This document shows, piece after piece, positions 186 to 41,309 of a stretch of DNA of 64,000 nt. A model generated the notes under the pieces. That model was given only the letters and a program-made list of their open reading frames with translations. It made no database searches and had not been told where the DNA came from. The DNA lies in contig CBDUOH010000001.1 in assembly GCA_965368815.1 (NCBI GenBank), positions 33,087 to 97,086 on the forward strand. The letters are read 5' to 3'. Both the position numbers and the translations under genes were made by a program. Each line of letters starts with the position of its first letter. Within the stretch, counting starts at the first letter, position 1. This stretch comes from an uncultured Acidimicrobiia bacterium. GTDB taxonomy: Bacteria > Actinomycetota > Acidimicrobiia > Spongiisociales > UBA5794.

Positions 186-2390
186 ATGAGACGATTTCTG
201 CTTGGAATCGGCTTGGTGGCGCTCGTCGTCACCCAGCTCACAATCGCTGGGGCCGAGGCGAACGACGCAGCCACGAGTCTTGCCAACTTCTCCGAGTCAC
301 GGGGGTGTGAACCCCATGAGGCGGGAGTCGTTCGCCCGTATGTCCAGCACACCGGAGCGATGCCGGCCTCTGAGCAGATCCTCGGCCCGTGGGGCGACAT
401 GTTCGGTCGGAATTCATACCAGGTCTCAGCTGCGATCGTGCCGTGGGCGCTTCCGGGGTCGAACAAGACCCTCTACGTGCACGAACGTGCTCTCCCGGCA
501 CTCGAGATCGCCGGCTCGTCACTTTCGAACCATCTCGCTGGTGGTGCCTGGTACTCGATCTACTCGGCGTTTGCCCGGAACTGGCGGACCGTTGGCGGCA
601 CCTACCGGCCCTCCGAACACGCCTTCGGGACCGCTTTCGACGTGAATCCTGCGGACAACCCGTACAGCCGGGACAACTACCTCCGAACCAATCTGCCTGC
701 CTGGTTCATCGATTCGTTCGTCAACGCCGGATTCTGCTGGGGCGGCGATTGGATCGATGTCAAGGATGCCATGCATTTCTCGTGGAGTGGCCCGGCGGAA
801 ACGCCGAACTATCCCTCCCGTCAGGCGCCGTTCCCCGCGTTGACGTCGGCCTCGGGTTTCGAAGGTCGCATCATCGGCTACCAATCCGCGGTGACATCGT
901 CCGGTGCCACATCGATGACCGTTGCCGACATGACGGGTGAAGGTGCGCCCGACATCGTCCGGATCTCAGGTTCGGGACTCGTCGAAGCGTCCGCAGCGGT
1001 CGGCGACTACCAACGGGTGGCGTATCGCGCCCAAGCAGGTTCGGGCTCGGCCGAAACCGTCGTCGGTGACTATGACCTGGACGGCGTCGCTGACGCCTGG
1101 ATGATCGACCGCTCGGGTTCGACGATCAAGCTTCGTATCTGGCGCGGCGTCACCGGTCTCGACTCCGAGATCGTGGTGAGCACCGGAGTGCCGTCCTCCA
1201 CGGGCAAGGTGTTGCTCGGCTACTACGACGGCGATTTCGTCCCCGACCTGTATGTCCGATCCGGCGGAGGCTTTTCGGTCTATCCGTCGTCGAGCAGCTA
1301 CTCGTCCCCGGTGGCGCAATATGCATTCGTGGGGGCGACGAACGACTCGTGGCACTTCGCAACGGGTGACGCAGACATGGACGGCAAGGCCGATGTGTAC
1401 GCGATCTCGAATGCGGGCGACCCGATCATGCACGTTCGTCTTGCGACCGGCAGCTATCAGACGTTCACACCTGCGGTGTCGATGGCCTCGGGTGACTTCT
1501 TCGAGATCGCCGATTACGACGGCGACGGACGTGACGACGTGTTCGCAATGTCAGGTTCGAAGCTGACGATCCTCCTCGGCGGGAACTCGAGCGGGAGTGC
1601 TGACCGCTGGTTCCAGACGGCGTCGACGCTGCCTCCCGATGCCGGGCCGAAGTGCGACGACCCCGGTCAGTGTGATTCGATCGGACACGTTGATGCGGGA
1701 GGGGTGTGGAGCCTTGCGGACAGCCCCGGTTTCAACGCCACCACAACCGACTTCTACTACGGCAACCCGGGAGATGAGCCATTCACAGGGGACTGGGACT
1801 GTGATGGGGACGAGACGCCGGGCCTGTATCGCCGGTCCGATGGGTTCGTCTACCTTCGCCAGTCGAATACCGAAGGTGTCGCGGATCTGGAGTTCTACTT
1901 CGGCAACCCGGGGGACAAGCCGCTCGTCGGCGACTTCAATGGCGACGGCTGCGACACGGTCAGCCTGTATCGGCCCTCTGAGCACCGCATCTACATCATC
2001 AATGATCTCGGCGAGGACGGCAAGGGACTCGGTGCCGCTGATTTCCACTACACCTTCGGCGATACCGGTGATGTACCGTTCGTCGGCGACTTCGATGGCG
2101 ACGGGATCGACGAGGTGGCCCTCCGTCGCCCGTCGACCGGCAAGATCCTTCTCAAGTGGGAGTTGTCCGCCGGCAACGCCGACTATCAGTTCATCTACGG
2201 TCAGACCGGTGATGTTCCGGTCGCAGGTGACTGGAACGGGGACGGGGTCGATACGGTTGCCGTGTATCGGCCGTCGAACGGCAACTGGTACATCCGCATC
2301 AACAACTCCGGCGGCGCAGCTGACCACGTCGTGCACATGAAGGCATCGGGGTCGGTCTCGTTGCCTGTCGTCGGCGTCTTCGGACTCTGA
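186..2390 (+). CDS. Secreted multidomain wall enzyme: M15-family (VanY/hedgehog-DD-peptidase fold) zinc peptidase + FG-GAP/VCBS-like repeats + C-terminal four-repeat GNPGD module
   Basis: ORF 9..2390. Start moved to ATG 186, where MRRFLLGIGLVALVVTQLTIAGAEA looks like a signal peptide. SEHAFGTAFD and DAMHFSW fit the M15 H-x-D ... H zinc-ligand pattern. About five DxDGxxD FG-GAP-like repeats follow (e.g. GDYDLDGVADAW, GDADMDGKADVY, ADYDGDGRDDVF). Four F[YF]xGNPGDxPxxGD[WF][DN]GDG repeats sit at the C-terminus. Confidence 0.85.
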   Translation: MRRFLLGIGLVALVVTQLTIAGAEANDAATSLANFSESRGCEPHEAGVVRPYVQHTGAMPASEQILGPWGDMFGRNSYQVSAAIVPWALPGSNKTLYVHERALPALEIAGSSLSNHLAGGAWYSIYSAFARNWRTVGGTYRPSEHAFGTAFDVNPADNPYSRDNYLRTNLPAWFIDSFVNAGFCWGGDWIDVKDAMHFSWSGPAETPNYPSRQAPFPALTSASGFEGRIIGYQSAVTSSGATSMTVADMTGEGAPDIVRISGSGLVEASAAVGDYQRVAYRAQAGSGSAETVVGDYDLDGVADAWMIDRSGSTIKLRIWRGVTGLDSEIVVSTGVPSSTGKVLLGYYDGDFVPDLYVRSGGGFSVYPSSSSYSSPVAQYAFVGATNDSWHFATGDADMDGKADVYAISNAGDPIMHVRLATGSYQTFTPAVSMASGDFFEIADYDGDGRDDVFAMSGSKLTILLGGNSSGSADRWFQTASTLPPDAGPKCDDPGQCDSIGHVDAGGVWSLADSPGFNATTTDFYYGNPGDEPFTGDWDCDGDETPGLYRRSDGFVYLRQSNTEGVADLEFYFGNPGDKPLVGDFNGDGCDTVSLYRPSEHRIYIINDLGEDGKGLGAADFHYTFGDTGDVPFVGDFDGDGIDEVALRRPSTGKILLKWELSAGNADYQFIYGQTGDVPVAGDWNGDGVDTVAVYRPSNGNWYIRINNSGGAADHVVHMKASGSVSLPVVGVFGL
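1751..2330 (+). repeat. Four-repeat GNPGD / GDWDGDG (FG-GAP-like) module, copy 1 of 6 in the window
   Basis: FYYGNPGDEPFTGDWDCDGDETPGLYRRSDGFVYLR, FYFGNPGDKPLVGDFNGDGCDTVSLYRPSEHRIYIINDLG, YTFGDTGDVPFVGDFDGDGIDEVALRR, FIYGQTGDVPVAGDWNGDGVDTVAVYRPS. The repeat order matches the paralogs at 32.4, 33.7, 35.1 and 35.9 kb. Confidence 0.85.
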
Positions 2391-2537: not shown

Positions 2538-3707
2538 GTGACGATGCGATGGCTGTCAGCGCTCGTCCGACGCTTGCCTCGCCCGTGGGTTCGCGCACTC
2601 AAACGGATTCCCTGGCTCAGATCGATTCGGGATCGACTCTACGGTGAGCCTCGGATCGATGGTCCGCCATCAGGTTCCCTACGGGCCATCGTGTATCTCC
2701 CGACCTGGGCCCGTTGGGACGACATGCGTCAGCGCCCGCAGTACCTCGTTCAGGCTTTTGCGAAAGCCGGCCACGACACCTATTTCGTCGACGGCAGCGA
2801 GCCGAAGCCTCGCTTCGTCGATGGAGTCCACATCGTCCCCTCGTTGCGACACGTTCCTTCCGCCGGTGTGATCCTGTACGTGCATTTTGCGCCGGTACGG
2901 AGTCTGTTCGACTCGTTCGACGACCCTGTGATCGTGTATGACATCCTTGACGACCTTTCGATCTATGACGCTGACGAGGCGGGGCTCCCCGAGGAGCGCC
3001 GCGTCCGGGCACATCACCCCTTGGTCATGGACCGTGCCGATGTCGTGACCGCGTCCGCGCCGCTCCTGGTTGAACGACACCTCGGGGAACGATCCGACAT
3101 CCTGTTCGTCGAGAACGGGGTCGACGTCGCTGCCTTCACAACCAGCGCGGCTCCGCCCGAGGTGTTCACGGACATCCCGCGACCTGTCGCCGGCTACCAC
3201 GGGATGATGTCGAGGTGGTTCGACTTCGATCTCGTCGCCGAGACTGCACGGCTTCTTCCCGAGGTTTCTTTCGTGCTGGTCGGGCCGGTCGATCTTGGGT
3301 CACGAGCAGCGATGGATCGACTTGTGTCGCTCGGGAATGTGTTCGAGACCGGACCCATGCCGAGCGACACCATGCCCGGCGTGGTGCAGGGTTTCGATGT
3401 CGGACTGGTTCCGTTCGTCGTCGACGACATGACACGAGCCGTGAGCCCGCTCAAGATGTTCGAGTACCTTGCCGCTGGAATCGGAGTCGTGGCATCTCCA
3501 CTACCGGTGTGCGTTGATCATCCGCTCGTGACGGTCGCACCGGATGCGGCATCGTTTGCGTCGGCTGTCGTCGAGGGTCTGGAATCGAGGAACGATCCGG
3601 CGGCATCTGCCGAGCGTCGATCGGCTGCCGAGGCTGCGGATTGGAGTGCTCGGATTGCGCCGGTTCGTGCTCGTTTGGCGGACCTCGACCGACTGCGGGT
3701 GCCATGA
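2538..3707 (+). CDS. GT-B glycosyltransferase (GT4/TuaH-like)
   Basis: GTG 2538 (alternative ATG 2544). The C-terminal SPLKMFEYLAAGIGVVASPLP resembles the GT-B nucleotide-sugar binding helix. It is a paralog of the C-terminal half of 6280..7890 (YHG..W.D.. / VGLVPF / SPLK.[FY]EYLA.G). Confidence 0.8.
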   Translation: MTMRWLSALVRRLPRPWVRALKRIPWLRSIRDRLYGEPRIDGPPSGSLRAIVYLPTWARWDDMRQRPQYLVQAFAKAGHDTYFVDGSEPKPRFVDGVHIVPSLRHVPSAGVILYVHFAPVRSLFDSFDDPVIVYDILDDLSIYDADEAGLPEERRVRAHHPLVMDRADVVTASAPLLVERHLGERSDILFVENGVDVAAFTTSAAPPEVFTDIPRPVAGYHGMMSRWFDFDLVAETARLLPEVSFVLVGPVDLGSRAAMDRLVSLGNVFETGPMPSDTMPGVVQGFDVGLVPFVVDDMTRAVSPLKMFEYLAAGIGVVASPLPVCVDHPLVTVAPDAASFASAVVEGLESRNDPAASAERRSAAEAADWSARIAPVRARLADLDRLRVP

Positions 3708-6283
3708 CGCGGCACCTCGCTTTCGTCACCACCGAACTGGCGCCGTACACACGCGGCGGAGCGGGGGTTCTGGTTTCCACGCTTGCGTCGGAGCTCCGTG
3801 CCACCGGCAACCGTGTGTCAGTGGTGTTGTGTGCCGAGCTCCGGACCCCGACCGACGATCCGGACGTGATTGTCGCCGACAGCCTTCTTGCGCCGGGTTG
3901 GGACTTCGGATTCATGGATCTGTCGATGGCGGCTGCCGAGACCCTTTCCGCGCTGCACCGGTCCGATCCACTCGACGAAGTCGAGATGCAGGACTTCGAT
4001 GGGATCGGTTTCTGGACCTTGACGCACCGCTCGGACCTTGGTCTCGCCGACGTGCCGTTGTCGGTTCGCGTACACGGTCCGACCGGTCTTCAGACGATGG
4101 CCATGGGCGCGTCCACGTTCGACCTTGATGTGGTCGCCGCGATGGAGGCCGAGACCCTGCGCATGGCTGACCGGGTGGTTGTGCCAAGCGGCGGCATCGG
4201 CAGGCTGGTCGTCGATCATTACAACCTCGATCCCGAGCGCATCGCGATCGGAGCCCCGATTGTGCGTCAGCCGGTCATCGACGCCAGGTGGCGCCCCGGA
4301 GGTGCAGAGTTCCTCGTCATCGGAAGGCTGTCGGAGGTCAAGGGATCGCACGACATGATCGCAGCCGCCGTGCCGGTCCTGCGCTCCCACGGATCTGCGT
4401 CGGTCGCGTTCGTCGGCGACGATGGCTGGAGCGTTTCGGCGAACCAGCCGATGTCGGCTTGGCTCGCAGCGATGATCCCGGACGATGTCAGGGATCGGAT
4501 CACCTTTGAGCCCTTCATCGACCACCCTGCCCTGTGCGACAGGATCGCCAGATGTCACGCTGTCGTGGTGCCAAGCCGGTTCGAGACATTCAATCTCGCT
4601 GCGCACGAGGCGCGCGTCATCGGGGCGCCGGTCATCGTTCCGTCGATTCCCGCGTTCACTGACGTATTCACCGACGGTGACGGCGTCCGCTTCTTCGAAC
4701 AGGGGAGGAGCTCGTTGACGGAGGTACTGGATTCGTTCGCCTCAGATCCCGGTTTGGCGGCCGAAGTCGCTGCCGGTGGCGTGCCGCGCCCCGGAGAGCC
4801 GCTGGCACCGTATCTGAGCATGGCTCAGGTGAGGCACGTCCGCAGTCAGGGAGGTGTCGCGACCGCCGCCCTCGCGCGCGTGGAAGCGATACGGTTCGCC
4901 GATCGAACCGATCCCAGCGGGCTATGGCGTTCGCTTGTGGCCAGGATGCCGACGGGTGCCATCGCTGCCGTCAAGCGGGTCGTTCCCCGATCGTTGAAGG
5001 ACTGGGTCAAGCGTCGGGCCGGATGGGACAGTCTCGCGGAACAACGAAGGTGGGATGCAAGGTGGGCGGGCCTCCGAGCCGCGGTTGCCACAGGTCGTTG
5101 GAATCCTGTCGGACGACCGAGGGTGTCGGTCGTCATCCCCTGTTTCAACCAGGGTGGCTTCCTGCATCAGGCCATCCTGTCGGTATTCGACCAGACCTTC
5201 ACGGACTTCGAGATAGTCATCGTCGATGACGGGTCCACCGATCCGTCAACGGTGGCCGTGATCGATGCACTCGACCTGCCACGGGTCAGCGTCATCCGTC
5301 AGGAGAATGGAGGACTACCGAACGCCCGCAACACAGGGATCCGTGCAAGCGTCGGAGAGTATGTGGTGACACTCGATGCCGACGACATGCTCGCAGAGAC
5401 CTACCTCGAAGAGCTGGCTGCGGTCCTGGACCGGGCGCCGAACGCTGGATACGCGCATTGTTGGGCCGAGCTGTTCGGTGACTTCCAAGCGGTGTGGGCA
5501 ACCCGACCGCCGAATCCGTATCAGCTGCTCTTGTCGAACAGCGTTGTGGGATGTGTCATGCTCCGACGGTCGGCCTGGGAGGACGCGGGCGGATACGACG
5601 AGTCGATGGTGCACGGCAACGAGGACTGGGATCTTTGGATCAGGCTATCGGCTGCGGGCTGGGGGAGCGTGCAGGTTGAGAAACCTCTCTTTCGCTATCG
5701 GAAGCACGGTGTGTCGATGAGTGTCGAAACCGAGGGCGACTACGAGTCAGCCATTCGTGCCCTCCCCGAGCGCCTCCCGAGCGTCTACAACGCCGAGTAC
5801 ATGGTCGCAACGAAGTCGGAGCACTACCCACTGGTGACGGTCATCGGATCGGTTGCGGCGTCCGGTTTCCGCCACGCCGTGGGAGACGATCACCAACATC
5901 TCGAGATTGAGGTCGACGAATTGGCATCGCTCCAGGATGCAATCCACGGCAAGTACGTTGTGGCATGGCCGGCCGATGCCTCGGCGGACGACGACGTCGT
6001 TGTTGAGCTGTGTCGGTATCTCGAGGCTCATCCGGATATCGGCGCCGTGCGCACGCAACGGTCGAATCCCTTGACCGTTGTGCGGACGTGGTCACTCAAG
6101 GACCCCGCAGCACCATCGGAAGTCGCCACCATCGATGTCGCCGGCACGGCGTCGGTGTCGCTCGGGATCGGGCAGTTGCCCGATCCCGCCTGGCATGTTC
6201 CCGCAGAGCTCGGTGGTCTCCCCGTCCAACGCCAACGGCCCGAAGAAGCCGGCATGATCCCAGCATGGGTGTTGGGTCGATGA
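3704..6283 (+). CDS. Fused dual glycosyltransferase (N-terminal GT4-like GT-B + GT2 GT-A) with an uncharacterised ~200-aa C-terminal region
   Basis: ATG 3704 overlaps the upstream stop (ATGA). N-terminus MTRHLAFVTTELAPYTRGGAGV is a GT4-type start. The later RVSVVIPCFNQGGFLHQAILSVFDQTFTDFEIVIVDDGSTD and LDADD are GT2 signatures. Confidence 0.85.
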   Translation: MTRHLAFVTTELAPYTRGGAGVLVSTLASELRATGNRVSVVLCAELRTPTDDPDVIVADSLLAPGWDFGFMDLSMAAAETLSALHRSDPLDEVEMQDFDGIGFWTLTHRSDLGLADVPLSVRVHGPTGLQTMAMGASTFDLDVVAAMEAETLRMADRVVVPSGGIGRLVVDHYNLDPERIAIGAPIVRQPVIDARWRPGGAEFLVIGRLSEVKGSHDMIAAAVPVLRSHGSASVAFVGDDGWSVSANQPMSAWLAAMIPDDVRDRITFEPFIDHPALCDRIARCHAVVVPSRFETFNLAAHEARVIGAPVIVPSIPAFTDVFTDGDGVRFFEQGRSSLTEVLDSFASDPGLAAEVAAGGVPRPGEPLAPYLSMAQVRHVRSQGGVATAALARVEAIRFADRTDPSGLWRSLVARMPTGAIAAVKRVVPRSLKDWVKRRAGWDSLAEQRRWDARWAGLRAAVATGRWNPVGRPRVSVVIPCFNQGGFLHQAILSVFDQTFTDFEIVIVDDGSTDPSTVAVIDALDLPRVSVIRQENGGLPNARNTGIRASVGEYVVTLDADDMLAETYLEELAAVLDRAPNAGYAHCWAELFGDFQAVWATRPPNPYQLLLSNSVVGCVMLRRSAWEDAGGYDESMVHGNEDWDLWIRLSAAGWGSVQVEKPLFRYRKHGVSMSVETEGDYESAIRALPERLPSVYNAEYMVATKSEHYPLVTVIGSVAASGFRHAVGDDHQHLEIEVDELASLQDAIHGKYVVAWPADASADDDVVVELCRYLEAHPDIGAVRTQRSNPLTVVRTWSLKDPAAPSEVATIDVAGTASVSLGIGQLPDPAWHVPAELGGLPVQRQRPEEAGMIPAWVLGR

Positions 6284-7890
6284 TGCGAACCGTCCTCATG
6301 CAACTCAAGCGAGTCGTTCGGCGATTCATCCCCGACCGGGTCATGGCGCGGATACGCAGGAGCGAGCACTCACGTGCCGTGCGGCGCAATGTGGATCTGT
6401 ACGTTGTGGACCCGGTGTCGGCTCGGCGTTGGGTCAAGCTCACGCCCGATACATACCGGGTCATCTCGACCGTCCCGCCCGAATCGGTCAGTGGGGTCGA
6501 TGTCGTCACCGCCGGACCGCCCGACACCGAACTCGCCCGCTATCTCGGTTGGCACGGTTCCGACGTCGTGGTGCGCGGCAGCGTCGGGCGACCGGGCATG
6601 CGTGGGATGAGGGTGGTGGAACCGCCGATTGTGCCGATCACTGCCGTCACCTCTCCGAGGATTGCCGATACCTTGCCACCAGAAGCTGCCGAATCGCCGG
6701 CATCAATGCTGTCGATCGCTTCGGCCGCAGGTCTACGAATCGGCGTGATCCCGGAGGTCGTCGCCGACCTTTCGCTGCCCATCACGCAGATTGCGGGCGC
6801 CCATGTTGTGATATTCGCAGCGGTTCCGCTGCACGACATCGGTGGGGGCAGCAGGGCCGCCCAGATCGCGATCGAGCTGTTGCGTCGTGGCTATGGCGTG
6901 ACGTACGTCTACCGGTATCCGACTGTGGAAAGTGGCGACCTCGGGCTCCGGTTCGTCCACCCGGATCTGGCAGAGGTCGATGTTGCGGTGTTCGAGCCAG
7001 GGCTGATCCGGCGCGCCAACGGCGACGCCATCGTGATCGTGGAGGCACCCATCGCCGAGTTCGTTTCGCCCGTCGAGCGTCTTGCGTCCGAGGGCTGGAC
7101 TGTCGTGTACGACGTGATCGATGACTGGACCGATGTTGCCCTTGGTGGTGATTGGTACCGCAGAGACGCAGAGCAGAGGCTTGTGGACGCTTCCACGGGG
7201 ATCACATGTTCCGCGGACGATCTGACCGCTCACATCGCCACATTCGGTCGGGAGGCCGTCGTGGTGCCCAACGCAGTGAACGAATCCATATTCGGTGTCG
7301 CAGAACCACAGAGTCGCCCGAGTGACCTACCCACAGGGCCGGTCCTGGGCTACCACGGGTCGCTCTATGGCGAGTGGTTCGACTGGGGAGCTCTCGAGTC
7401 AGTCGCCGCGGCGTTCCCTGATCATGTGGTTGCGGTCATCGGCGACGCACGCGGGGTGCCGAAGGTTTCGGCCGACAACATCGTGTTTCTCGGACTCAAG
7501 CGTCAGAGCGAGTTGCCGGCCTATCTGCAGTCGTTCGAGGTCGGACTTGTGCCTTTCGAGGTCAGCAATCTGACCCACACGGTTTCGCCGCTCAAGATCT
7601 ACGAATACCTTGCGAGCGGGGTTCCTGTCGCGGCTCCGCCGCTGCGCCCCCTCAAAGGTCTCGACGGCGTGTACCTGGATCCTCATCTTCCGACGGCCGT
7701 TGCCAAGGCCATCGAAGGGGGCCCTCCGGACCGGAACGTGGCGCTGAGGGACCACACGTGGGGTGCGAGACTTGCGATCATGTTCCGACACATCGATAGA
7801 CAGCTCCAGCCGATCGACAATGACGGAGTCACGACCGCCGTGCGGTTGCCCGTCCGGTATGGCAAAGCCGAACGGTGGATCAGGGCATGA
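6280..7890 (+). CDS. GT-B glycosyltransferase (TuaH-like) with ~170-aa N-terminal extension
   Basis: ATG 6280 overlaps the upstream stop by 4 nt. C-terminal motifs GYHGSLYGEWFDW, VGLVPF and SPLKIYEYLASGVPVAAPPL are paralogous to 2538..3707. Confidence 0.75.
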   Translation: MMRTVLMQLKRVVRRFIPDRVMARIRRSEHSRAVRRNVDLYVVDPVSARRWVKLTPDTYRVISTVPPESVSGVDVVTAGPPDTELARYLGWHGSDVVVRGSVGRPGMRGMRVVEPPIVPITAVTSPRIADTLPPEAAESPASMLSIASAAGLRIGVIPEVVADLSLPITQIAGAHVVIFAAVPLHDIGGGSRAAQIAIELLRRGYGVTYVYRYPTVESGDLGLRFVHPDLAEVDVAVFEPGLIRRANGDAIVIVEAPIAEFVSPVERLASEGWTVVYDVIDDWTDVALGGDWYRRDAEQRLVDASTGITCSADDLTAHIATFGREAVVVPNAVNESIFGVAEPQSRPSDLPTGPVLGYHGSLYGEWFDWGALESVAAAFPDHVVAVIGDARGVPKVSADNIVFLGLKRQSELPAYLQSFEVGLVPFEVSNLTHTVSPLKIYEYLASGVPVAAPPLRPLKGLDGVYLDPHLPTAVAKAIEGGPPDRNVALRDHTWGARLAIMFRHIDRQLQPIDNDGVTTAVRLPVRYGKAERWIRA

Positions 7891-7899: not shown

Positions 7900-8889
7900 T
7901 CACGCCGAACGCCCGGTGAACGCCTTCCAGCGGTAGGCGCTGTCCGCGTCCGTTCGGTCCAGGCTCGCGTTGGCACGGTCGATCGCCTCGGTGCGATTGT
8001 CCAACAATTCTGTCGCCTGGCCGGCGATCGCCGACGGGTCGTCCGCCCGTGTCAGTGTGGTCAGCGCCATGAGTTCCTGATCGTCCGTGAACAGAGCCGA
8101 CGTCCTCGACATGAGGCAAGGAACCCCGAGCCGGTACGACTCCATCGGCATCATGGGGTGGCATTCGGACAGCGTCACGTTGAAGCTGATGTCCATGGCC
8201 GCTTGGGTTCTGAAATAGGTGCTGCGATCGAGCTCACCGTGGACCACGATCCGATCCCTCGGCAGGTAGTCGGCACCGGGGTCGCCCATGACATGGGGCC
8301 GCCACCCGTTGCCGAGAGCGGCGAGGACCTGTGTCGTGACATTCTTGCGCCACAACGGGTGCAGGAAGATCCCCACGTTCGTGCCGTCGGGCACCTCGAT
8401 CGGCGCAACCGCATCGATGACGGGCACCCGGTTCGGCGTGTAGTGGATGGTGTGTCCGATCGATGCGAAGGCATCCACGAGTCCTGATTTGACAGTGCCG
8501 ATACGAGCGACGCGTCCTTCGTCGCTGAGCCGCATCATCGATGTGACCGCTTCCGCCTCCCCGCCATCAACACCGTGCTGCGCCGGTGAGGAGTGGAACA
8601 CGGTCAGGACCTCGATACCGACCTGCGAAGCTGCAGAGGCAAAGGCCTCGGCTCCGGGTGGCCAGCCCTGGATGACGGCGCATGACACGCCTGCGCCGAC
8701 GAGAGCATCGACATGCGGTGCGAGCATCCCGAGGTCCTCCGCCTCGATCACCGGATCACCGAATGCGTGTGTTGATGCTCGCACTCCTCGCCAGTGGGGA
8801 TGGCACAGCTGAAGGATTCCGTCACGAATCGTCGGGATGTCCGGTGGTCCAGCCAGTTCCGGGGTCGGGCGCCGCAACCGCCGTCTCAC
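7900..8889 (-). CDS. Probable GT-B-fold glycosyltransferase (weak assignment)
   Basis: GTG start overlaps the wecB stop (GTGA). The C-terminal SECHPMMPMESYRLGVPCLMS resembles the E-x7-E helix region of GT4 enzymes. There are no other strong motifs. Confidence 0.55.
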   Translation of the reverse strand: MRRRLRRPTPELAGPPDIPTIRDGILQLCHPHWRGVRASTHAFGDPVIEAEDLGMLAPHVDALVGAGVSCAVIQGWPPGAEAFASAASQVGIEVLTVFHSSPAQHGVDGGEAEAVTSMMRLSDEGRVARIGTVKSGLVDAFASIGHTIHYTPNRVPVIDAVAPIEVPDGTNVGIFLHPLWRKNVTTQVLAALGNGWRPHVMGDPGADYLPRDRIVVHGELDRSTYFRTQAAMDISFNVTLSECHPMMPMESYRLGVPCLMSRTSALFTDDQELMALTTLTRADDPSAIAGQATELLDNRTEAIDRANASLDRTDADSAYRWKAFTGRSA

Positions 8890-9995: not shown

Positions 9996-10031
9996 GTGAT
10001 TCGCCGATGGTCGAGGGCTACGCTGCGGCGC

Positions 10032-12605: not shown

Positions 12606-12721
12606 CGGATCTCCACGGAACCGAGAATGGGCATGCTTGACGAAATCAAAGGAGAAATCCGGCGGATGGGTACACTTCGGCACCTCGTGGCACCCACCAG
12701 CTGACCCTGGAGTTTTCTTAC

Positions 12722-14108: not shown

Positions 14109-14175
14109 GTTTGCCCTTGTCTGTGTCGTCGTGCCGGTCGCTGCCCGGCCCATGATATGGGAATCGGTCCGTTCC

Positions 14176-16433: not shown

Positions 16434-16435
16434 CG

Positions 16436-25130: not shown

Positions 25131-25139
25131 GTCGTCCTC

Positions 25140-34299: not shown

Positions 34300-35699
34300 G
34301 GTATACGGAAACCCCGGGATTCAAGAATGTCGGTGACGCTGCCGATACCAACAAGATGCGCAACGGAGCCACCGCCGCCGCCGCACGATTGATTGCGGTC
34401 GTATTCGCCGTGTTCTCGCTCGCGCTCGTGGCGACGCCGGCGAGGGCGGACGAACCGCCGCCGCCGTGGATCTTCCCTGTTGTCGGCGAGGACGGCGTCG
34501 ATTTCGGCTATTACGACACGTTCGGTGCACCACGCGGCGGTGGCCGCAGTCATCACGGCGTTGACATCGGTACCTACGGCGTCAAAGGCGTTCCTGTCGT
34601 TGCAGCGGCCGACGGGTACGTGAAGCAGGTGAACTGGTCCTCGGATCCCGACAATCTCAACCCCGATCGATGCTGCACCATCGCACTCGTCCATGAGGGG
34701 GGCTGGGAGACCTGGTACATCCATCTGGACAACGACACCGAGGGCACCGACGATGGCCTCGGCTGGGGCATCGCCGACGGCGTCGTTCCCGGGGCAGATG
34801 TTGTGGCCGGTCAACTGATCGGTTGGGTCGGCGACTCTGGCAACGCCGAAGGCACGTACCCGCATCTTCATTGGGAGGTCCATGCACCGGGTGGCGTTGT
34901 GGTCAACCCGACGCCACATGCCGACTCGGCCATGCGGATCCCGGAGCCGGGAATCGTGAGCTACGACCCGCCATGTACCGACGGCGCCACCTGCGATTCG
35001 ATCGCAGTCGTCGACAGCGGTAGCCGATTCGGATTGTGGAGCCAGCTCGACGATCCACACGAGACCGATTGGTTCTATTTCGGCAACCCGGGCGATATCC
35101 CGTTCATGGGTGACTGGGACGGTGACGGTATCGCAACACCGGGTCTGTACCGTCAATCCGACGGTTTTGTCTACCTCCGCGAGTCCAACACCGAAGGTGT
35201 CGCAGATCGTGAATTCTTCTTCGGGAATCCCGGGGACGTTCCATTGATCGGCGACTTCGACGGCGATGGGAGGGATTCGGTGTCGATCTGGCGTTCGAGC
35301 GAGGCTCGGGTGTACGTGATCAACGAGCTCGGTGCCGACGGCGAGGGGCTCGGAGCGGCGGACTACGACTTCATGTTCGGCAACCCCGGTGACCAGCCGT
35401 TCGTCGGTGACTTCGACGGGGACGGGATCGATACGATCGGGCTCTACCGGACATCGACGGGATTCGTCTACTTCACGAATGCCAACGAGACCGGTGCCGC
35501 CGACAACGAGTTCTTCTACGGCAACCCCGGTGACGTGATCTTCGCCGGTGACTGGGACGGCGACGGCGACGACACCGTTGCCGTGTTCCGCCCCTCGAGT
35601 CGACGCGTCTACATGAATCTCAACAACGCACCAGGTACGGCCGATTGGGCCGGATACGTCGGCACGAACCCATACGTGGTCGTGGCCGGTCGCCGATGA
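34296..35699 (+). CDS. Secreted M23 (LytM-type) peptidoglycan endopeptidase + four-repeat GNPGD module
   Basis: ATGA overlap with the upstream stop. Signal/TM segment RLIAVVFAVFSLALVATPARA. HHGVDIG (HxxxD), WYIHLDN and GDSGNAEGTYPHLHWEV (HxH) motifs. Confidence 0.85.
   Translation: MRYTETPGFKNVGDAADTNKMRNGATAAAARLIAVVFAVFSLALVATPARADEPPPPWIFPVVGEDGVDFGYYDTFGAPRGGGRSHHGVDIGTYGVKGVPVVAAADGYVKQVNWSSDPDNLNPDRCCTIALVHEGGWETWYIHLDNDTEGTDDGLGWGIADGVVPGADVVAGQLIGWVGDSGNAEGTYPHLHWEVHAPGGVVVNPTPHADSAMRIPEPGIVSYDPPCTDGATCDSIAVVDSGSRFGLWSQLDDPHETDWFYFGNPGDIPFMGDWDGDGIATPGLYRQSDGFVYLRESNTEGVADREFFFGNPGDVPLIGDFDGDGRDSVSIWRSSEARVYVINELGADGEGLGAADYDFMFGNPGDQPFVGDFDGDGIDTIGLYRTSTGFVYFTNANETGAADNEFFYGNPGDVIFAGDWDGDGDDTVAVFRPSSRRVYMNLNNAPGTADWAGYVGTNPYVVVAGRR
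35073..35657 (+). repeat. Four-repeat GNPGD module, copy 4
   Basis: WFYFGNPGDIPFMGDWDGDGIATPGLYRQSDGFVYLR, FFFGNPGDVPLIGDFDGDGRDSVSIWRSSEARVYVINELG, FMFGNPGDQPFVGDFDGDGIDTIGLYRTSTGFVYFT, FFYGNPGDVIFAGDWDGDGDDTVAVFRPSSRRVYMNL. By eye, nucleotide identity to copies 2 and 5 in repeat 2 is roughly four positions in five. Confidence 0.9.
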
Positions 35700-36985
35700 A
35701 AACCCGTGCGATCGTGCAAACCCTCGGTATGGTGCCCGCTGGTGAGGAGGCTGGAATGACCACGAGATCGACGTCAACTGCGAACCGGTCGTTGCGGCGC
35801 GCCCTGATACTCGCGTTCACGGTTGCAGCGTTCCTGCTGACGGCGGCCGGTATGGCTGCCGCATCGGACGATGTGGGGCTCGTCGACGGTGAGACCGGCA
35901 TCTGGTACCTCAGGGACGCTGCGTCGGGGGAGACCACCTCGTTCTACTACGGCAATCCCTCCGACTACCCGTTCGCGGGGGACTGGGACTGCGACGGCGT
36001 CGACACGCCAGGGCTCTACCGCCAGTCCGACGGATATGTGTATCTGCGGAACTCGAACACGCAAGGGATTGCCGACATCCGGTTCTTCTTCGGCAACCCG
36101 GGCGATATCCCGCTTCCCGGTGATTTCGACGGCGATGGGTGCGACTCGGTGTCGATCTACCGTCCATCCGAGGCACGGGTCTACATCATCAACGAGATCG
36201 GTGCCCACGGCGCAGGTTTGGGTGCCGCGGACTTCAGCTTCGCCTACGGGAACTACGGGGACATCCCGGTTGTCGGCGACGCCGATGGTGACGGTACCGA
36301 TTCCATCCACATGTTCCGGGAACAGACGGGGATGGTCTACCTCAACGACGTCGTGGGGGATGGGCCGACGACTGCGGTGGAGGTCGCAGACCGTACCGTA
36401 CCGCTGATCGGAGACTGGCCCGGAAGCGGAGCCGTGGCGACGTTCGGGTCGAACCCGTCCGAGTTCGACGTGCCCGGTACCGGAGTGTTCGCATACGGTG
36501 GCCCTGACATGTCCCCGATCTCGGGTGACTTCGGAGTCCTCCCCGGTGGCGACGACCCGCCGCCGGTTCCACCTCCGTATCCGGATGTGGGTGACGGCAA
36601 ACGGATCATCTACTCCAATTCCGAGCAGCACGTCTGGTTGGTCGATGAGAACAACAAACTCGTCGACGATTACCCCGTGTCCGGTCGCAAGGGTATTCCC
36701 TACGCAGGCACGTACTCGGTCTTCAGCAAGTCGGTGAATGCCTACGCGCCCTACGGCGGGATCACGATGCAGCACATGGTCCGATTCGTCCGTCCTGGTA
36801 CATGGGGCAACCAATGGTCCTACGGCTTCCACTCGATACCCAGATATCCCAATGGACAGCCGATGCAGACGGTCGACGAACTCGGGTACTACCGGTCAGG
36901 TGGATGTGTTCGGCAGGAGGATGGCAAGGCTGCGGCGTTGTTCGAATGGGCCGACATCGGCACCGTCGTCCACGCGCTGCCGTAG
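35696..36985 (+). CDS. Secreted protein: N-terminal GNPGD repeat module + C-terminal L,D-transpeptidase (YkuD) domain
   Basis: ATGA overlap with the upstream stop. TM/signal segment ALILAFTVAAFLLTAAGMAAA. The C-terminal YGFHSIP....SGGCVRQ matches the YkuD catalytic H...S-x-G-C-x-R motif. Confidence 0.85.
   Translation: MKTRAIVQTLGMVPAGEEAGMTTRSTSTANRSLRRALILAFTVAAFLLTAAGMAAASDDVGLVDGETGIWYLRDAASGETTSFYYGNPSDYPFAGDWDCDGVDTPGLYRQSDGYVYLRNSNTQGIADIRFFFGNPGDIPLPGDFDGDGCDSVSIYRPSEARVYIINEIGAHGAGLGAADFSFAYGNYGDIPVVGDADGDGTDSIHMFREQTGMVYLNDVVGDGPTTAVEVADRTVPLIGDWPGSGAVATFGSNPSEFDVPGTGVFAYGGPDMSPISGDFGVLPGGDDPPPVPPPYPDVGDGKRIIYSNSEQHVWLVDENNKLVDDYPVSGRKGIPYAGTYSVFSKSVNAYAPYGGITMQHMVRFVRPGTWGNQWSYGFHSIPRYPNGQPMQTVDELGYYRSGGCVRQEDGKAAALFEWADIGTVVHALP
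35942..36447 (+). repeat. GNPGD repeat module, copy 5 (N-terminal position, last repeat degenerate)
   Basis: FYYGNPSDYPFAGDWDCDGVDTPGLYRQSDGYVYLR, FFFGNPGDIPLPGDFDGDGCDSVSIYRPSEARVYIINEIG, FAYGNYGDIPVVGDADGDGTDSIHMFREQTGMVYLN, then a degenerate VPLIGDWPGSG. Confidence 0.85.
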
Positions 36986-36987
36986 AC

Positions 36988-38007
36988 CTAGTGCGTCGGC
37001 ATGTCCCTGCCGCCGCGTCTCCCCGGCGTCGGCGCACCCCTGTGGAGCGTGCGGGTCTGGCTCCTCGGGTATCGCAGCGACATCGCGTTGACCATGTGCA
37101 GGGCAGATACGGTTCGGAACCGCTCGACCTCGCGTCGGCGTTGGAGCCTGCCGCGTCGCCGTGTCCAGACGCTTTGATACGACCGCCATTTGGCTCCCGC
37201 AAGCCCGGATCGTTTCCGAACGGCGTACACCCAGACCGCGAGCTCGGTGGCGACGATGATCGGGCTGACCAACAGCCTCGTTGCGAACCCGAGGTACGTC
37301 ATCAGCATTTCGATGCGGTTGCGCTCCAGGAGGAAGAACTTCTCGGGTGACATCGTGAGGTGATAGTCGTGGACAACGGCTGGTGTCGGTACGTGCCAGA
37401 CCTGGTATCCAGCGGCCATGATGGCCCATGACAGTTCGACGTCCTCGTGATAGAGGAATCCGCGTTCGGACCAACCACCGATCTGCTCGAGAACGTCCCG
37501 CTTGATCACGAACGCGGTCCCCTGGACACCGTGAACTCTCGCCGGGGTCACGGCTGCCGTGTCGGTGGCATGGCCCAGGTGCCGATTGAAGCCGAACCCT
37601 GCTTTGTGGAGCAGCAATCCTTCGGCGTTGATGCCCGTTCCGTCAGCCAGGATCACCGTGGGACACGCCGCAGCGATTCGGTCGTTGCGTTCCAGTATGT
37701 CGACGCAGGGCGCAATCCAGTCGCCCTCGACGACGCAATCAGCGTTCATGACAGCGATGTGCTGCGTTGTGACCGAGCGCACCCCGAGGTTGACTCCGCC
37801 CGCATAGCCGAGGTTCTTCTCGGATCGGACGACCTTGACTCCATCGAGGCGCCCGGCGACCGCATGCGCGATCGATGCCGTGTCATCGGTGGACGCGTTG
37901 TCGACGATCACCAGCGGGCCGGCGAAACCGGACTGCCGCACGGATTCGATGCATCGTTCGAGTGTCCCTGCATCGTTGTACGCCACGATGATGAGCGCCG
38001 ATGCCAC
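36988..38007 (-). CDS. GT2 glycosyltransferase (soluble, rhamnosyltransferase-like architecture)
   Basis: ALIIVAYNDAGTLERCIESV, VIVDNASTDDT, NLGYAGGVNLG and MNADCVV motifs. It starts 1 nt after the upstream gene ends. Confidence 0.8.
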   Translation of the reverse strand: MASALIIVAYNDAGTLERCIESVRQSGFAGPLVIVDNASTDDTASIAHAVAGRLDGVKVVRSEKNLGYAGGVNLGVRSVTTQHIAVMNADCVVEGDWIAPCVDILERNDRIAAACPTVILADGTGINAEGLLLHKAGFGFNRHLGHATDTAAVTPARVHGVQGTAFVIKRDVLEQIGGWSERGFLYHEDVELSWAIMAAGYQVWHVPTPAVVHDYHLTMSPEKFFLLERNRIEMLMTYLGFATRLLVSPIIVATELAVWVYAVRKRSGLAGAKWRSYQSVWTRRRGRLQRRREVERFRTVSALHMVNAMSLRYPRSQTRTLHRGAPTPGRRGGRDMPTH

Positions 38008-38008
38008 G

Positions 38009-39175
38009 CTAGGACGTCCGGTCGGTCAACAGTGTGATGAAGAGCGAAGCGGACAACATCTGGAGGCCGAAGACGGCTCCCGTGGCTGTCGCGACCAGCG
38101 TGCGGGTATCGGTGAATGCAGGTCCTCCCGCGGCAAGCCACGCGACAATCGTCGCGAGCAGCCAGAGGCCACACACCATCACGAGCGTGAGCCCGGTGAG
38201 TGCAGCGATGGCACGAGCCCGGCCCGATGTCAGCGCGTCGACGGCGCGCGACACGCGGAATCCGAGTTGCTTGCGGTACACAGCGCCCGCGATACCAAAG
38301 ATCAGGAGCTGGAATCCTGCGAGGATCCCGAGGGCGGACACGATGAACGAATGAATCGACAGACCGAGGTAACCGGTCATCACGGGTCCTCCTGCGAGCG
38401 CGACGGCGGCGATCAGCGACACGGTCGTCAGGATCGCCCCGGGTACGCCGAAGAGCATCAGTGGGCGATACACGAGCACCAGGCGCAGGATGCGCCCGAA
38501 GATGCGTGCCCCGTCGCGGAGGGGATTGAGCTTCTTCTCGCCGACCCTCGGGAGATAGTCGATGGGGACCGACGCGGTACGGAGCTCTCGCTCCTTGACC
38601 TTGATGCCGATCTCGACCTCGATGTCGAAGCCTCGCGCTTCGGTACCGAGATCGCCGAATATGGCCCGCCTGAAACCGTACAGCCCACTGAGGTGATCAC
38701 CGCGATCGAGGCCGTGCAGGGTCTGGAGCACGCGCTCCATCAGGGCGTTGCCGATTCGGTTGATCATCGGGGTATTCGATGCATCGATGGCTCGATCAGC
38801 CCGCACATAGTCGTTGTCAGCGAGCAGCTCGACCATGGCAGGAATCGCTTGTGCCGGGTATGTCGCATCGGCGTCCATGAAGAAGACATAATCACCGCTT
38901 GATGCCTCGAACCCGGTCCTGAGGGCACTGCCTTTGCCGAGATTGCTCTGATGCGGGGCAACGACGCAGCCGAGTCCTGCTGCCTCGGCGGCCGTGGCGT
39001 CCGTGCTGGCATCGTCGACCACCACGATCTCGGCATCGGGCAGATGGGTCCGGATGTCCGCGACGACGATCGGGATGGCGTCAGCCTCGTTGTACGCAGG
39101 CAGCACGACGGTCACCGTGGGCGAGTTCGACCGTCGGGCGACGGCGTCTGGTTGGGTCGAGATCGAGTGTGACAC
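38009..39175 (-). CDS. Polyprenyl-phosphate glycosyltransferase (GtrB/DPM1/ArnC-like GT2) with extended C-terminal TM region
   Basis: VTVVLPAYNEADAIPIVVADI, VVVDDASTDAT, NLGKGSALRTGF and FMDADATY, followed by at least four TM helices. Confidence 0.85.
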   Translation of the reverse strand: MSHSISTQPDAVARRSNSPTVTVVLPAYNEADAIPIVVADIRTHLPDAEIVVVDDASTDATAAEAAGLGCVVAPHQSNLGKGSALRTGFEASSGDYVFFMDADATYPAQAIPAMVELLADNDYVRADRAIDASNTPMINRIGNALMERVLQTLHGLDRGDHLSGLYGFRRAIFGDLGTEARGFDIEVEIGIKVKERELRTASVPIDYLPRVGEKKLNPLRDGARIFGRILRLVLVYRPLMLFGVPGAILTTVSLIAAVALAGGPVMTGYLGLSIHSFIVSALGILAGFQLLIFGIAGAVYRKQLGFRVSRAVDALTSGRARAIAALTGLTLVMVCGLWLLATIVAWLAAGGPAFTDTRTLVATATGAVFGLQMLSASLFITLLTDRTS

Positions 39176-39197
39176 GTCGCAACGATAGTGCGACTTG

Positions 39198-41309
39198 TCA
39201 GCCGCCCCAGTATCCGGCGATCGGGTTCATCCAGGAATCCCCGAATTGGAAGATCACGTTCGCCGACGTCTGGGTGTAGGTGTCGCGGAGGTAGAAGGTT
39301 CCGTTCGACGGCCGGAACACCCCGAGTGTGTCGTCTCCGTCGTTGTCCCAGTCGCCCGCGATCACGAGATCACCCGCTGCCGCTCCCCGGTAGTTGTAGG
39401 CAACAGACACGGCGCCGGTTGCGAGGTTGTCCGTGAGGTACACCATCTTGGTCGACGGGCGATAGACACCCACGGTGTCCTTGCCGTCTCCGTTCCAGTC
39501 GCCTGCGATCGGCTGATCGCCCGAGTTGCCGAACGACACCACGATGTCGGCGATGCCCTGCGTGTTTGTGTTGCGGAGGTAGAACTTCGATTCCGATGGA
39601 CGGTAGACGCCGACGGTGTCAGTCCCGTTTCCGTTCCAGTCGCCTGCGATCGGGATGTCACCGGGGATGCCGTAGTAGATGTCGATGTCGGCGACACCTT
39701 GCGTGTTGGAGTTCCGGATGAACAGGAACCCGACGCTTCGGCGGTACAAACCGACGGTCTCGATGCCATCTCCGTTCCAATCACCGATGAACGGCTCATC
39801 GTTCGGGTCCCCGTAGTAGAACGTCTTGACCGCGCCAGACGGCATCCGGATTGACCAGACACCGGTCGTCGGGTCCTGCATGCCGACCGACGATGCGCCT
39901 GCGGGAACAGTCATCGGGGGCGGTCCTTCGACCTCGGCGTCATCGATGTCGAAGTACCAGCTGTAGAGACCGAATCTCGAGCTGACCGTGCCCACCGGCA
40001 GCGTGACGGTCTTGATGCCGTCCTCGCCGGCGTCTGCGGTGAACCGCACGGTCTTGGCACTCCCCGAGGTGTGCCGGGCGATGACATCGGCAGCGGTGAG
40101 GCGATATCCGTCGTAGAGCGAGCTGGTACCCCAGACCTTGTCGATGACCACGTCGGTCGTGAACGTGGATGTCCATGTCCCGAGCGGATTGGCCGCGGTG
40201 ATCGACTGCCCATCCGACTTCGAAATCAGATACGACCGATACGAACCCCACTTCTCTTCCGACGACTCGGTCGCTCCACCGTTCGACGAGCTGTAGTACG
40301 CCTTGACGATCTTGCCGTCAGGGGCCTGGGCATGGGTCATCACCATGCCCGCTGTGGCGTTCGCAGCGGCTTCCCACAGCGTTCCCATCGTGAAACTCCG
40401 GGTCCAGCCGGCGTACACCTGGTCTGAGGAGCTGTTCTTGATGTCGCAGAAGCATCCCGCATTCCTGTGGTTGACCGTGTAGGCAGTGGCTGCGCCATAC
40501 GACCGTGCCGCCACCGCCTGGGTCCTGAGGGCGTTGGATGGCCACGAGTACGGCACCTCGGAGATCCCCCGTGTGTACTCGTCGAGGGTGGTCACGACAA
40601 CGAGATCGAAGCCCGGATAGGCCAGCTCGTTGTTGTTGCCGCACGGGTGTGCATAGCAGTCATGGAGGGATCGGTGACTGCTGACGTTGTCGACCACGTG
40701 GAAGGCGGTGCCGTATCCGTAGGTGCATTGGGTCGGTCGCCTGCAGTTGGTGGCGGATATGAGATTGGACGGTTCGCCACCGGGAGCGTTGAGCGCTGCT
40801 GTCACATCGCAGCTCCCGACCCCCCAATCGGTGGCGACGTCATCGATGGTCACGACGATCTGGCAACCGCCGGGTGCACCCTCCTGGGGTGTGGTGTCGA
40901 CGATCGATACGGTGTCGCCGCTGAACAGGGTCGTCGACGGTGTGGCTGTCACGGTGGGATCGCGGGTGATCACGATCCCGGCTTCAGGAGCCGCAGGACC
41001 GGGGTGCACCGTGAGTGTCGTGCTCGTGATGTCCGATGCCACGTTGGTGTAGATCGAATCGACGGCTCCGACACCGCCCTGACCGAGGACGCCGATCGTT
41101 GCCCCGTGGTAGTAGAAGCCGAGGATGGTCGAGTACGACTGGCCGTCGAGTGCCCTTTGGTATGCGCCGTATTGGCTCATACCCACGCCATGACCGAATC
41201 CGGAGCCTTCGAAGTCGATCGTCGCAGGAGGTTCCGCAGCGGTAGCCGTCGAAGGAATCGATGTCATGGAGACCAACAACGCAATCAATATCAGAGATCT
41301 GCGAACCAT
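39198..41309 (-). CDS. Secreted SpoIID/LytB-domain protein + C-terminal five-repeat GDWNGDG module
   Basis: Signal peptide MVRRSLILIALLVSMTSIPSTATAA. GHGVGMSQYGA and YYSSSNGGATE are SpoIID-domain motifs. The C-terminal repeats are a diverged version of the GNPGD module. Confidence 0.85.
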   Translation of the reverse strand: MVRRSLILIALLVSMTSIPSTATAAEPPATIDFEGSGFGHGVGMSQYGAYQRALDGQSYSTILGFYYHGATIGVLGQGGVGAVDSIYTNVASDITSTTLTVHPGPAAPEAGIVITRDPTVTATPSTTLFSGDTVSIVDTTPQEGAPGGCQIVVTIDDVATDWGVGSCDVTAALNAPGGEPSNLISATNCRRPTQCTYGYGTAFHVVDNVSSHRSLHDCYAHPCGNNNELAYPGFDLVVVTTLDEYTRGISEVPYSWPSNALRTQAVAARSYGAATAYTVNHRNAGCFCDIKNSSSDQVYAGWTRSFTMGTLWEAAANATAGMVMTHAQAPDGKIVKAYYSSSNGGATESSEEKWGSYRSYLISKSDGQSITAANPLGTWTSTFTTDVVIDKVWGTSSLYDGYRLTAADVIARHTSGSAKTVRFTADAGEDGIKTVTLPVGTVSSRFGLYSWYFDIDDAEVEGPPPMTVPAGASSVGMQDPTTGVWSIRMPSGAVKTFYYGDPNDEPFIGDWNGDGIETVGLYRRSVGFLFIRNSNTQGVADIDIYYGIPGDIPIAGDWNGNGTDTVGVYRPSESKFYLRNTNTQGIADIVVSFGNSGDQPIAGDWNGDGKDTVGVYRPSTKMVYLTDNLATGAVSVAYNYRGAAAGDLVIAGDWDNDGDDTLGVFRPSNGTFYLRDTYTQTSANVIFQFGDSWMNPIAGYWGG
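39201..39821 (-). repeat. GDWNGDG repeat module, copy 6 (five repeats, diverged)
   Basis: FYYGDPNDEPFIGDWNGDGIETVGLYRRSVGFLFIRN, IYYGIPGDIPIAGDWNGNGTDTVGVYRPSESKFYLRN, VSFGNSGDQPIAGDWNGDGKDTVGVYRPSTKMVYL, AAGDLVIAGDWDNDGDDTLGVFRPSNGTFYLRD, FQFGDSWMNPIAGYW. Confidence 0.85.

Follow-up and report, generated by a model that had tools for sequence, protein, structure and literature searches.

A candidate propeller-type wall anchor encoded beside a glycopolymer locus in uncultured Acidimicrobiia

The stretch of DNA analysed here, called the window throughout, comprises 64,000 nucleotides of contig CBDUOH010000001.1 (positions 33,087 to 97,086, forward strand) from an uncultured Acidimicrobiia bacterium of the order Spongiisociales (assembly GCA_965368815.1, our genome G000; 2.3 Mb, 96.5% complete), with a G+C content of about 62%. 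Six of its open reading frames encode proteins that have a module of about 235 amino acids in common, each with a signal-peptide-like N-terminus as read from the translations. We consider it moderately probable that this module is a non-covalent wall anchor, that its ligand is the glycopolymer made by the adjacent locus, that the epitope arises through a membrane protein of the DUF6020 family, and that the hydroxyethylphosphonate (HEP) cassette of the locus is dispensable for anchoring.

Module-bearing genes of the window

The catalytic domains of all six module-bearing proteins were recognized by Pfam/NCBIfam, and the module itself was located with a profile hidden Markov model (HMM). Positions are those of the window.

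186-2390, plus strand: M15 gene; secreted Peptidase_M15_4 with classical FG-GAP_3 repeats and a C-terminal module at 1668-2387 (Pfam; module HMM 4e-120)
31295-33055, plus strand: GH26 gene; secreted GH26-like hydrolase with the module at 32345-33052 (Pfam; module HMM 4e-122)
33052-34299, plus strand: CAP gene; secreted CAP/YkwD protein with the module at 33598-34296 (Pfam, NCBIfam, module HMM)
34296-35699, plus strand: M23 gene; secreted Peptidase_M23 with the module at 34992-35696 (Pfam, module HMM)
35696-36985, plus strand: YkuD gene; secreted protein with an N-terminal module at 35855-36544 and a YkuD L,D-transpeptidase domain (Pfam, module HMM)
39198-41309, minus strand: SpoIID gene; secreted SpoIID/LytB protein with the module at 39201-39899 (Pfam, NCBIfam, module HMM)

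The initial annotation of the window had these six genes flanking or sitting inside one glycopolymer region, and had seen no LysM, SLH or PG_binding domains on the enzymes. All six genes were indeed found where it had placed them, and scans with Pfam (E<=0.01) and NCBIfam agree that LysM, SLH and PG_binding are absent from the six proteins, as are choline-binding repeats (CW_binding_1). While the placement stands, the six genes are not the full genomic set. A module-profile search of the genome returned 16 copies, six in the window and ten on other contigs, the latter fused to Amidase_2, subtilisin S8, PD40/cadherin, right-handed beta-helix, FN3/FG-GAP or unknown domains. The presence of 6 of the 16 copies within 41 kb corresponds to a binomial P of 2.3e-7.

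The module is a general exoprotein module that is not restricted to peptidoglycan hydrolases. Its position varies among the exoproteins, and placement at either end or inside, on unrelated proteins, argues for a binding module and not a sorting signal; a terminal sorting signal in particular is ruled out by the N-terminal, C-terminal and internal occurrences.

Three further module genes of the same genome are cut by contig ends (C161, of 1768 bp, C126 and C6), so that copy number and architectures are slightly under-described. The protein on C161 comprises FN3 and six FG-GAP_3 repeats and ends 18 residues into the module.

The glycopolymer locus and its conservation

Pfam matches identify a glycopolymer locus between and around the module genes. 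Homologous loci in related genomes were found either with module genes (module-type) or with SLH proteins (SLH-type), the latter exemplified by genome G004.

2538-7890, plus strand: core glycosyltransferases (GTs); GT4 (2538-3707), GT4+GT2 fusion (3641-6283) and GT4 (about 6270-7890) (Pfam; orthologs with 36-58% identity in module-type loci of other genera, and also present in the SLH-type locus of G004)
7900-11189, both strands: core genes; GT-like (7900-8889, minus), UDP-N-acetylglucosamine (UDP-GlcNAc) 2-epimerase (8886-10178, minus) and membrane GT2, synthase-like (9777/10032-11189, plus) (Pfam; Epimerase_2 3.9e-84)
11124-12752, minus strand: DUF6020; polytopic membrane protein and candidate GT-C (31.1 bits for Pfam DUF6020, cut-off 28.3)
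12930-20057, both strands: variable cassette, part 1; TagF-like (12930-14153, minus), Fe-ADH (14176-15306, minus), phosphonopyruvate decarboxylase (Ppd; 15303-16433, minus), cytidylyltransferase-PepM fusion (16436-17821, minus) and sulfatase/LtaS-like membrane protein (17799-20057, plus) (Pfam)
20054-28581, both strands: variable cassette, part 2; methyltransferase-GT2-GT4 fusion (20054-23524, minus), epimerase/reductase, NDP-sugar nucleotidyltransferase and 4,6-dehydratase (together 23554-26147, minus) and GT2-GT4 fusion (26053-28581, plus) (Pfam)
28666-30239, plus strand: ABC-2 polymer exporter; permease (28666-29496) and ATPase (29451-30239) (Pfam)
30229-31221, minus strand: core GT2, kept beside the run of module genes (Pfam)
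36988-39175, minus strand: two GT2 genes, the one at 38009-39175 starting with a GT2 domain and ending in a membrane region, an architecture like that of GtrB (Pfam; tail rich in transmembrane segments, from the translation)

An ortholog of the M15-module gene starts the locus in G007, G017, G020, G018, G043, G046, G310 and G167. The recurring order runs M15-module, GT4, GT4+GT2, GT4, the trio of GT-like, epimerase and membrane GT2, DUF6020, ABC-2, a variable stretch, GT2, the run of module enzymes, the GT2s, SpoIID-module and KorBA. It was found, whole or rearranged, in G007, G017, G020, G018, G026, G043, G046, G310 and G167, which belong to several genera and families, and this recurrence indicates that the arrangement is more than chance.

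Individual parts of the locus differ in how widely they are kept. The GT-like, epimerase and membrane GT2 genes occur in both module-type and SLH-type loci, and the ABC-2 exporter is kept at 54-67% identity in all loci examined, including that of G004. Orthologs of the two GT2 genes at 36988-39175 are present in G007 and G020 and are weak or absent in G017 and G018. As a minor feature, the convergent 3' ends of the membrane GT2 (to 11189, plus) and DUF6020 (from 11124, minus) overlap by 66 nt; the same two genes are adjacent and convergent in G007 and G017, with aligned matches overlapping by about 57 nt.

Predicted fold and distribution of the module

The AlphaFold2 model built from the six-copy alignment (predicted local distance difference test (pLDDT) 87.0, predicted TM-score (pTM) 0.84) contains 20 strands, which we read as five four-stranded blades closed by an N-terminal strand. 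Conservation was assessed in an alignment of 143 distinct module copies and is blade-specific. The module has four loops, GD[WF][DN]G[DN]GxD, that correspond to the integrin/VCBS calcium-loop type, and their first Asp is kept in 135-143 of the 143 copies; from these DxDxDG-type loops we infer that the module binds calcium. The Arg of a 'YR' motif is found in 143/143 copies in blade 1 and again in blade 2, in 141/143 in blade 3 and in 137/143 in blade 4. Furthermore, a Cys pair formed by the blade-1 loop (GDWDCDG) and the blade-2 loop (GDGCD) is complete in 91 copies and wholly missing in 52, with 0 mixed cases. Such perfect co-variation is expected for an extracellular disulfide, and a bond joining the blade 1 and blade 2 loops is predicted for most copies. 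The conserved Arg and the co-varying Cys pair would together fit a folded extracellular lectin. Copies that lack the pair have mostly Gly and Arg/Lys/Phe at those positions, and within the window the pair is present in the M15 and YkuD proteins and absent in the GH26, CAP, M23 and SpoIID proteins.

The module is not covered by any Pfam or NCBIfam model. No NCBIfam match fell on it, while Pfam FG-GAP_3 scored below its cut-off of 26.9 bits in two proteins (17.0 and 21.5 bits) and did not match in three; the M15 protein does have an FG-GAP hit above threshold, but in its classical repeats (residues 408-466), which are separate from the module. Literature searches on FG-GAP wall-binding domains in Actinobacteria and on SLH or wall polymers of Acidimicrobiia found no paper that describes the module.

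The top Foldseek match of the model was chain A of 9oee, UmbA4 (E 3.2e-8, query TM-score (TMq) 0.56, 21% identity), which was also the sole sequence match of the module in the PDB (HMM E 2.3e-4). Further Foldseek matches were Vibrio cholerae Bap1 (6mlt) and two fungal propeller lectins that bind GlcNAc, the Psathyrella velutina lectin (PVL; 2bwr) and Agrocybe AAL2 (4tqm). All three have DxDxDG-type loops on their blades, as the module does, and bind carbohydrate or exopolysaccharide, as the module is proposed to do. In contrast to the module, with its roughly 235 amino acids, blade-specific conservation and inter-blade disulfide, their chains have about 400 and 600 residues, and their propellers have seven or eight blades.

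UmbA4 is a component of the Streptomyces umbrella toxin particles. The canonical sites of its C-terminal beta-propeller lectin bind a teichuronic-acid-like polymer on the wall teichoic acid of Streptomyces, and UmbA4 propellers also mediate filament contacts (PMC13274773). It is likewise an actinobacterial propeller with GDFNGDGxDD-type loops as in the module, but its propeller must have six blades or more, given that site I is situated between blades 5 and 6, compared with five in the module. Moreover, it aims at the wall of a competitor for toxin delivery, whereas the module would hold the cell's own enzymes. Going by the predicted model, the module, with its five blades, is distantly related to the FG-GAP/VCBS propeller lectins, of which UmbA4 is one.

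The family is large, with no fewer than 9,185 cluster representatives (E<=1e-30) among 1.84 billion proteins. In a sample of 401 genomes of the phylum, strong members (E below 1e-80) were confined to the window's order, with a few weaker relatives elsewhere in Actinomycetota. Giant members contain many profile-matched stretches, for example P0001 (1796 aa, 9 stretches) and P0003 (3432 aa), and may carry either several propellers or long repeat arrays. Several records of metagenome-assembled genomes (MAGs) with strong module copies are titled 'Acidobacteriota' or 'Kiloniellaceae'; since strong copies are otherwise confined to one actinobacterial order, these titles are suspect and probably reflect mislabelling or mis-binning.

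Co-occurrence of the module with DUF6020

Gene content was compared across 61 relatives of the window genome and across an order-wide sample of 301 genomes, each at least 85% complete. The genomes are MAGs of uncultured organisms, and the genome searches used a heuristic first pass. Genomes with at least three strong module copies were termed module-rich, which applied to 64 of the 301.

The DUF6020 gene has few paralogues and is for that reason a good marker of the locus. With a cut-off of E<=1e-40, an ortholog was detected in 50 of the 64 module-rich genomes and in 8 of the 237 others (odds ratio 102, Fisher p 1.6e-35, kinship ignored), and 7 of those 8 matches are the weakest, at 34-39% identity. 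Two of the 14 module-rich genomes without a hit were checked, and both contain the gene, split by frameshifts in G310 and cut by a contig end in G167, which implies that the true association is tighter.

The locus of G310 (C2:250000-305000) is broken more generally, with DUF6020, membrane GT2, GT-like and methyltransferase-GT each present as two or three consecutive fragments. This fragmentation is probably indel error in the MAG assembly, and breaks of this kind produce false absences in presence/absence profiles.

The AlphaFold model of the DUF6020 protein has an AF2 pLDDT of 77.6. Its top Foldseek matches are all GT-C enzymes (Pmt1/2, ArnT, AglB, OST, EmbB, AftA and PglB), although weak (E 0.013-1, TMq 0.3-0.43), and a sequence search of the PDB gave no match. 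On this basis, we tentatively assign DUF6020 as a GT-C glycosyltransferase.

SLH as the alternative anchor

The genome that contains the window has no match to SLH (PF00395) and none to the CsaB-type pyruvyltransferase (PF04230). Among the relatives, 14 of 16 module-rich genomes lack SLH. In the order-wide sample, SLH is absent in 58 of the 64 module-rich genomes and present in 135 of the 237 others (odds ratio 0.078, p 1.3e-12, kinship ignored). CsaB was found in 22 of the 26 SLH-positive relatives, which fits the established pairing of SLH with pyruvylated N-acetylmannosamine (PMC6081394, PMC6030368).

The clearest indication that one anchor replaces the other comes from module-free congeners, where the exchange can be followed on individual genes. 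In G004, a module-free congener, the SpoIID ortholog adjoins KorAB as in the window, and its C-terminus consists of three SLH repeats where the window protein has the propeller; G010, G021 and G006 likewise encode SpoIID homologs with SLH at the C-terminus. Beside KorAB, G006 encodes an M23-SLH protein, an Amidase_2-SLH protein and one more protein with SLH; GT2 homologs and a CsaB-type pyruvyltransferase come next. The catalytic domain of the G006 M23 protein is 56.6% identical to that of the window M23. The homologous polymer locus of G004 has an SLH protein and a canonical CsaB between exporter and membrane GT2, the very site that DUF6020 occupies in module-type genomes, and DUF6020 itself is missing from it. 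This locus and the window share ABC-2, membrane GT2, epimerase, GT-like, GT4+GT2 and GT4 at 41-62% identity. In another module-free congener, G005, the contig ends 4.5 kb past KorB, leaving nothing informative at the syntenic site.

At least seven genera (g1, g8, g11, g62, g85, g87 and g68) contain both anchor types, with DUF6020 found only in their module-type members, which indicates repeated switches and not a single split.

In the SLH-type relatives, many SLH repeats contain two conserved Cys residues (G-I-T-x-G-C ... F-C-P), which makes them a variant of SLH specific to this lineage. G021 encodes a protein that combines FG-GAP with SLH, and G004 one that combines VanW with SLH.

What the module may bind

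The distribution of the two anchors bears on the possibility that the module binds peptidoglycan itself, at the glycan strand or the stem peptide, and that its proximity to the polymer locus comes from the clustering of wall genes. Most of its partners in the window are peptidoglycan-active (M15, M23, YkuD and SpoIID), as is Amidase_2 elsewhere, and the related lectins PVL and AAL2 bind GlcNAc. Peptidoglycan is universal in the order, however, whereas the module is absent from about 70% of the genomes, congeners included, and tracks both DUF6020 and the absence of SLH. Since it is also found on subtilisin, PD40/cadherin and beta-helix proteins, which are not peptidoglycan enzymes, we regard peptidoglycan as an unlikely ligand.

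We consider it quite unlikely that the module is a protein-protein or self-assembly domain, serving an S-layer-like lattice or another surface protein, or a calcium-stabilised spacer, with the link to DUF6020 reflecting co-inheritance of an island. No partner protein co-varies with it in the data examined, and SLH, which replaces it on the counterpart enzymes, is a polymer-binding anchor. About one third of the copies do lie in the island, so linkage inflates the co-occurrence, but the dispersed copies (10 of 16 here and about two thirds in G017) vanish together with the island in module-free congeners. The FG-GAP propellers of integrins, which mediate protein binding, and the propellers of UmbA4, with their filament contacts, provide the precedents for such a role.

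The phosphonate cassette

A further candidate for the ligand is a decoration made within the locus. The PepM fusion matches PF13714 (7e-54) and has an N-terminal PF01467 domain (CTP_transf_like, 1.4e-11). As read from the translation, it also contains the diagnostic EDKxxxxxNS motif, a criterion for phosphoenolpyruvate (PEP) mutase (PMC6697681), and it thus shows both features expected of a Fom1/PntC-type PEP mutase with a fused cytidylyltransferase.

Fused PepM orthologs were found among the 61 relatives in G000, G001, G009 and G020 only. Module-rich genomes that lack them include G007 (7 copies, 4 contigs), G017 (30 copies, 6 contigs), G018 (26 copies, 100% complete), G029, G043 and G054. 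In the 301-genome sample, fused PepM is present in 6 of the 64 module-rich and 5 of the 237 other genomes (p 0.014), which leaves 58 of the 64 without it, and 5 of the 11 PepM genomes have no module.

Gene order points in the same direction. In the sister genome G007, the syntenic locus has retained all module genes together with the core polymer genes, but the block at 12.9-28.6 kb of the window is missing. In its place are a fusion protein with a pyruvyltransferase domain, GT4s and a GDP-mannose 4,6-dehydratase/epimerase pair, and the genes of cassette part 2 are absent or represented only by distant paralogues. Conversely, in G020, which belongs to another genus, the HEP cassette is complete and in one piece, with 46-78% identity for most genes and 40% for the epimerase. 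Cassette part 1 occurs as a block in G020 and is missing from the syntenic loci of G007, G017 and G018; part 2 is present in G020 and partly in G310. The absence of the block from the G007 locus and its intact presence in G020 mark the phosphonate genes as a strain-variable cassette. Judged by gene content, the whole block of HEP, TagF-like, sulfatase-like, methyltransferase-GT and 6-deoxyhexose genes is a movable, serotype-like decoration cassette, and the cassettes of the window and of G007 would supply different anionic groups, phosphonate in one and pyruvate in the other.

The initial annotation had suggested that the HEP or 6-deoxyhexose decoration is the ligand, and had put forward co-occurrence with pepM as a check. 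Once run, this check found the module to be common in pepM-free genomes, an outcome that the annotation itself had named as refuting, and both the 61 relatives and the 301 genomes lead us to reject HEP as a general rule. The 6-deoxyhexose proposal fared no better: the SLH-type locus, too, contains related genes of the dehydratase and nucleotidyltransferase kinds, so such genes do not separate module-type from SLH-type loci and were discarded as a discriminator. That the module docks on HEP or a 6-deoxyhexose, as choline-binding repeats do on phosphocholine, is therefore very improbable, even though module genes flank the locus that contains the HEP pathway (PepM fusion, Ppd, Fe-ADH and TagF-like), module-rich genomes show a mild enrichment of fused PepM and the conserved blade Arg could bind an anionic group. 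From the gene distribution, HEP cannot be a required ligand of the module, and a role for it is possible as a strain-specific refinement only.

A model for anchoring to the locus-encoded polymer

The reading that we favour has the module as a lectin-type propeller, probably stabilised by calcium, that would tether exoproteins non-covalently to a secondary wall polymer. This polymer would be built by the conserved core (GT4, GT2 and UDP-GlcNAc 2-epimerase) and exported by the ABC-2 transporter of the adjacent locus. As most of the backbone genes are shared with SLH-type loci and DUF6020 is specific to module-type ones, the epitope is most likely the product of DUF6020, which, as a GT-C enzyme, would add a sugar from a polyprenyl-phosphate donor on the outer side of the membrane. 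A candidate for the synthase of this donor is the membrane-anchored GT2 at 38009-39175, although it is not kept in all loci. The HEP/TagF-like/6-deoxyhexose cassette would be a strain-variable decoration that the anchor can do without. Polymer binding by the module and epitope formation by DUF6020 are both steps that we infer. The broader principle proposed at the outset, an anchor encoded beside its polymer, gains support from the synteny across families, the co-occurrence with DUF6020, the near-exclusivity with SLH and the anchor swap.

Several points weigh against this model. The evidence is wholly computational and the organisms are uncultured. The similarity to UmbA4 is modest (TMq 0.56, HMM E 2e-4), and the Foldseek E-values behind the GT-C assignment of DUF6020 are weak (0.013 and above). 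Physical linkage may account for part of the co-occurrence, as DUF6020 shares one island with the module genes, and the Fisher tests ignore phylogeny; of the 14 module-rich genomes without a detected DUF6020, only two were inspected individually. Six genomes have both module and SLH, and 102 have neither anchor, which means that other systems exist. Lastly, most core polymer genes are shared with SLH-type genomes, and the polymer backbone alone cannot explain specificity.

Relation to known anchoring systems

The closest functional parallel is the SLH/CsaB system of Bacillus anthracis and Paenibacillus alvei (PMC6081394, PMC6030368), which likewise provides a non-covalent anchor on many exoproteins, with anchor genes embedded in a polymer locus that includes UDP-GlcNAc 2-epimerase and the anchor tied to one locus-specific modifying enzyme. 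Here, too, module genes lie inside a polymer locus and co-vary with a locus enzyme, and within the order the two are found at homologous loci and stand in for one another on the SpoIID, M23 and amidase counterparts. They differ in the anchor, a three-fold helical SLH trimer as opposed to a predicted five-bladed propeller, and in the co-varying enzyme, which is a pyruvyltransferase for SLH and a GT-C-like membrane protein, DUF6020, for the module.

The choline-binding proteins of Streptococcus pneumoniae resemble the module proteins in that autolysins whose catalytic domains differ have a single type of binding module in common. Their fold is unrelated, built from CW_binding_1 repeats that the module proteins lack, and the dependence on phosphocholine has no counterpart here, as the candidate decoration, HEP, fails the co-occurrence test. 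By analogy, the system would work like SLH/CsaB or the choline-binding proteins, and it is a member of neither.

Beyond the anchor itself, we can picture two interchangeable and nearly exclusive display systems at homologous loci, one with SLH trimers and a CsaB-pyruvylated polymer, the other with a hitherto undescribed five-bladed propeller lectin, stapled by a disulfide, and an epitope that DUF6020, as a GT-C enzyme, would install on the outside of the membrane. These may have been switched repeatedly, re-tooling several to dozens of exoproteins each time, with anionic cassettes layered on top and perhaps under pressure from phages or toxins. This wider scenario is plausible, and we put it forward tentatively.

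Non-covalent wall anchors such as SLH, choline-binding, LysM, GW and CWB2 domains are central to the surface organisation of Gram-positive bacteria and are used as affinity tools. If our model is true, the module would add a further anchor class, with a propeller-lectin fold, from an abundant but uncultured actinobacterial class. The loci would amount to a natural experiment, in which the same enzymes and locus backbone are combined with either propeller and DUF6020 or SLH and CsaB, and which names DUF6020 as a candidate epitope-forming enzyme. Recombinant modules could then serve to label or sort uncultured Acidimicrobiia by wall type. The comparison also corrects a tempting over-interpretation, in that the rare phosphonate pathway would be a serotype-like variable decoration and not the ligand of the anchor.

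Neighbouring genes

The module is not found on the gene products downstream of KorAB (window positions 44450-55561), which are an amidase (44450-45880, minus), a DUF3048 protein (45890-46978, minus), an M81/MlrC peptidase (47721-49331, minus), the lipid II flippase MurJ (50375-52009, minus) and two ABC ATPases.

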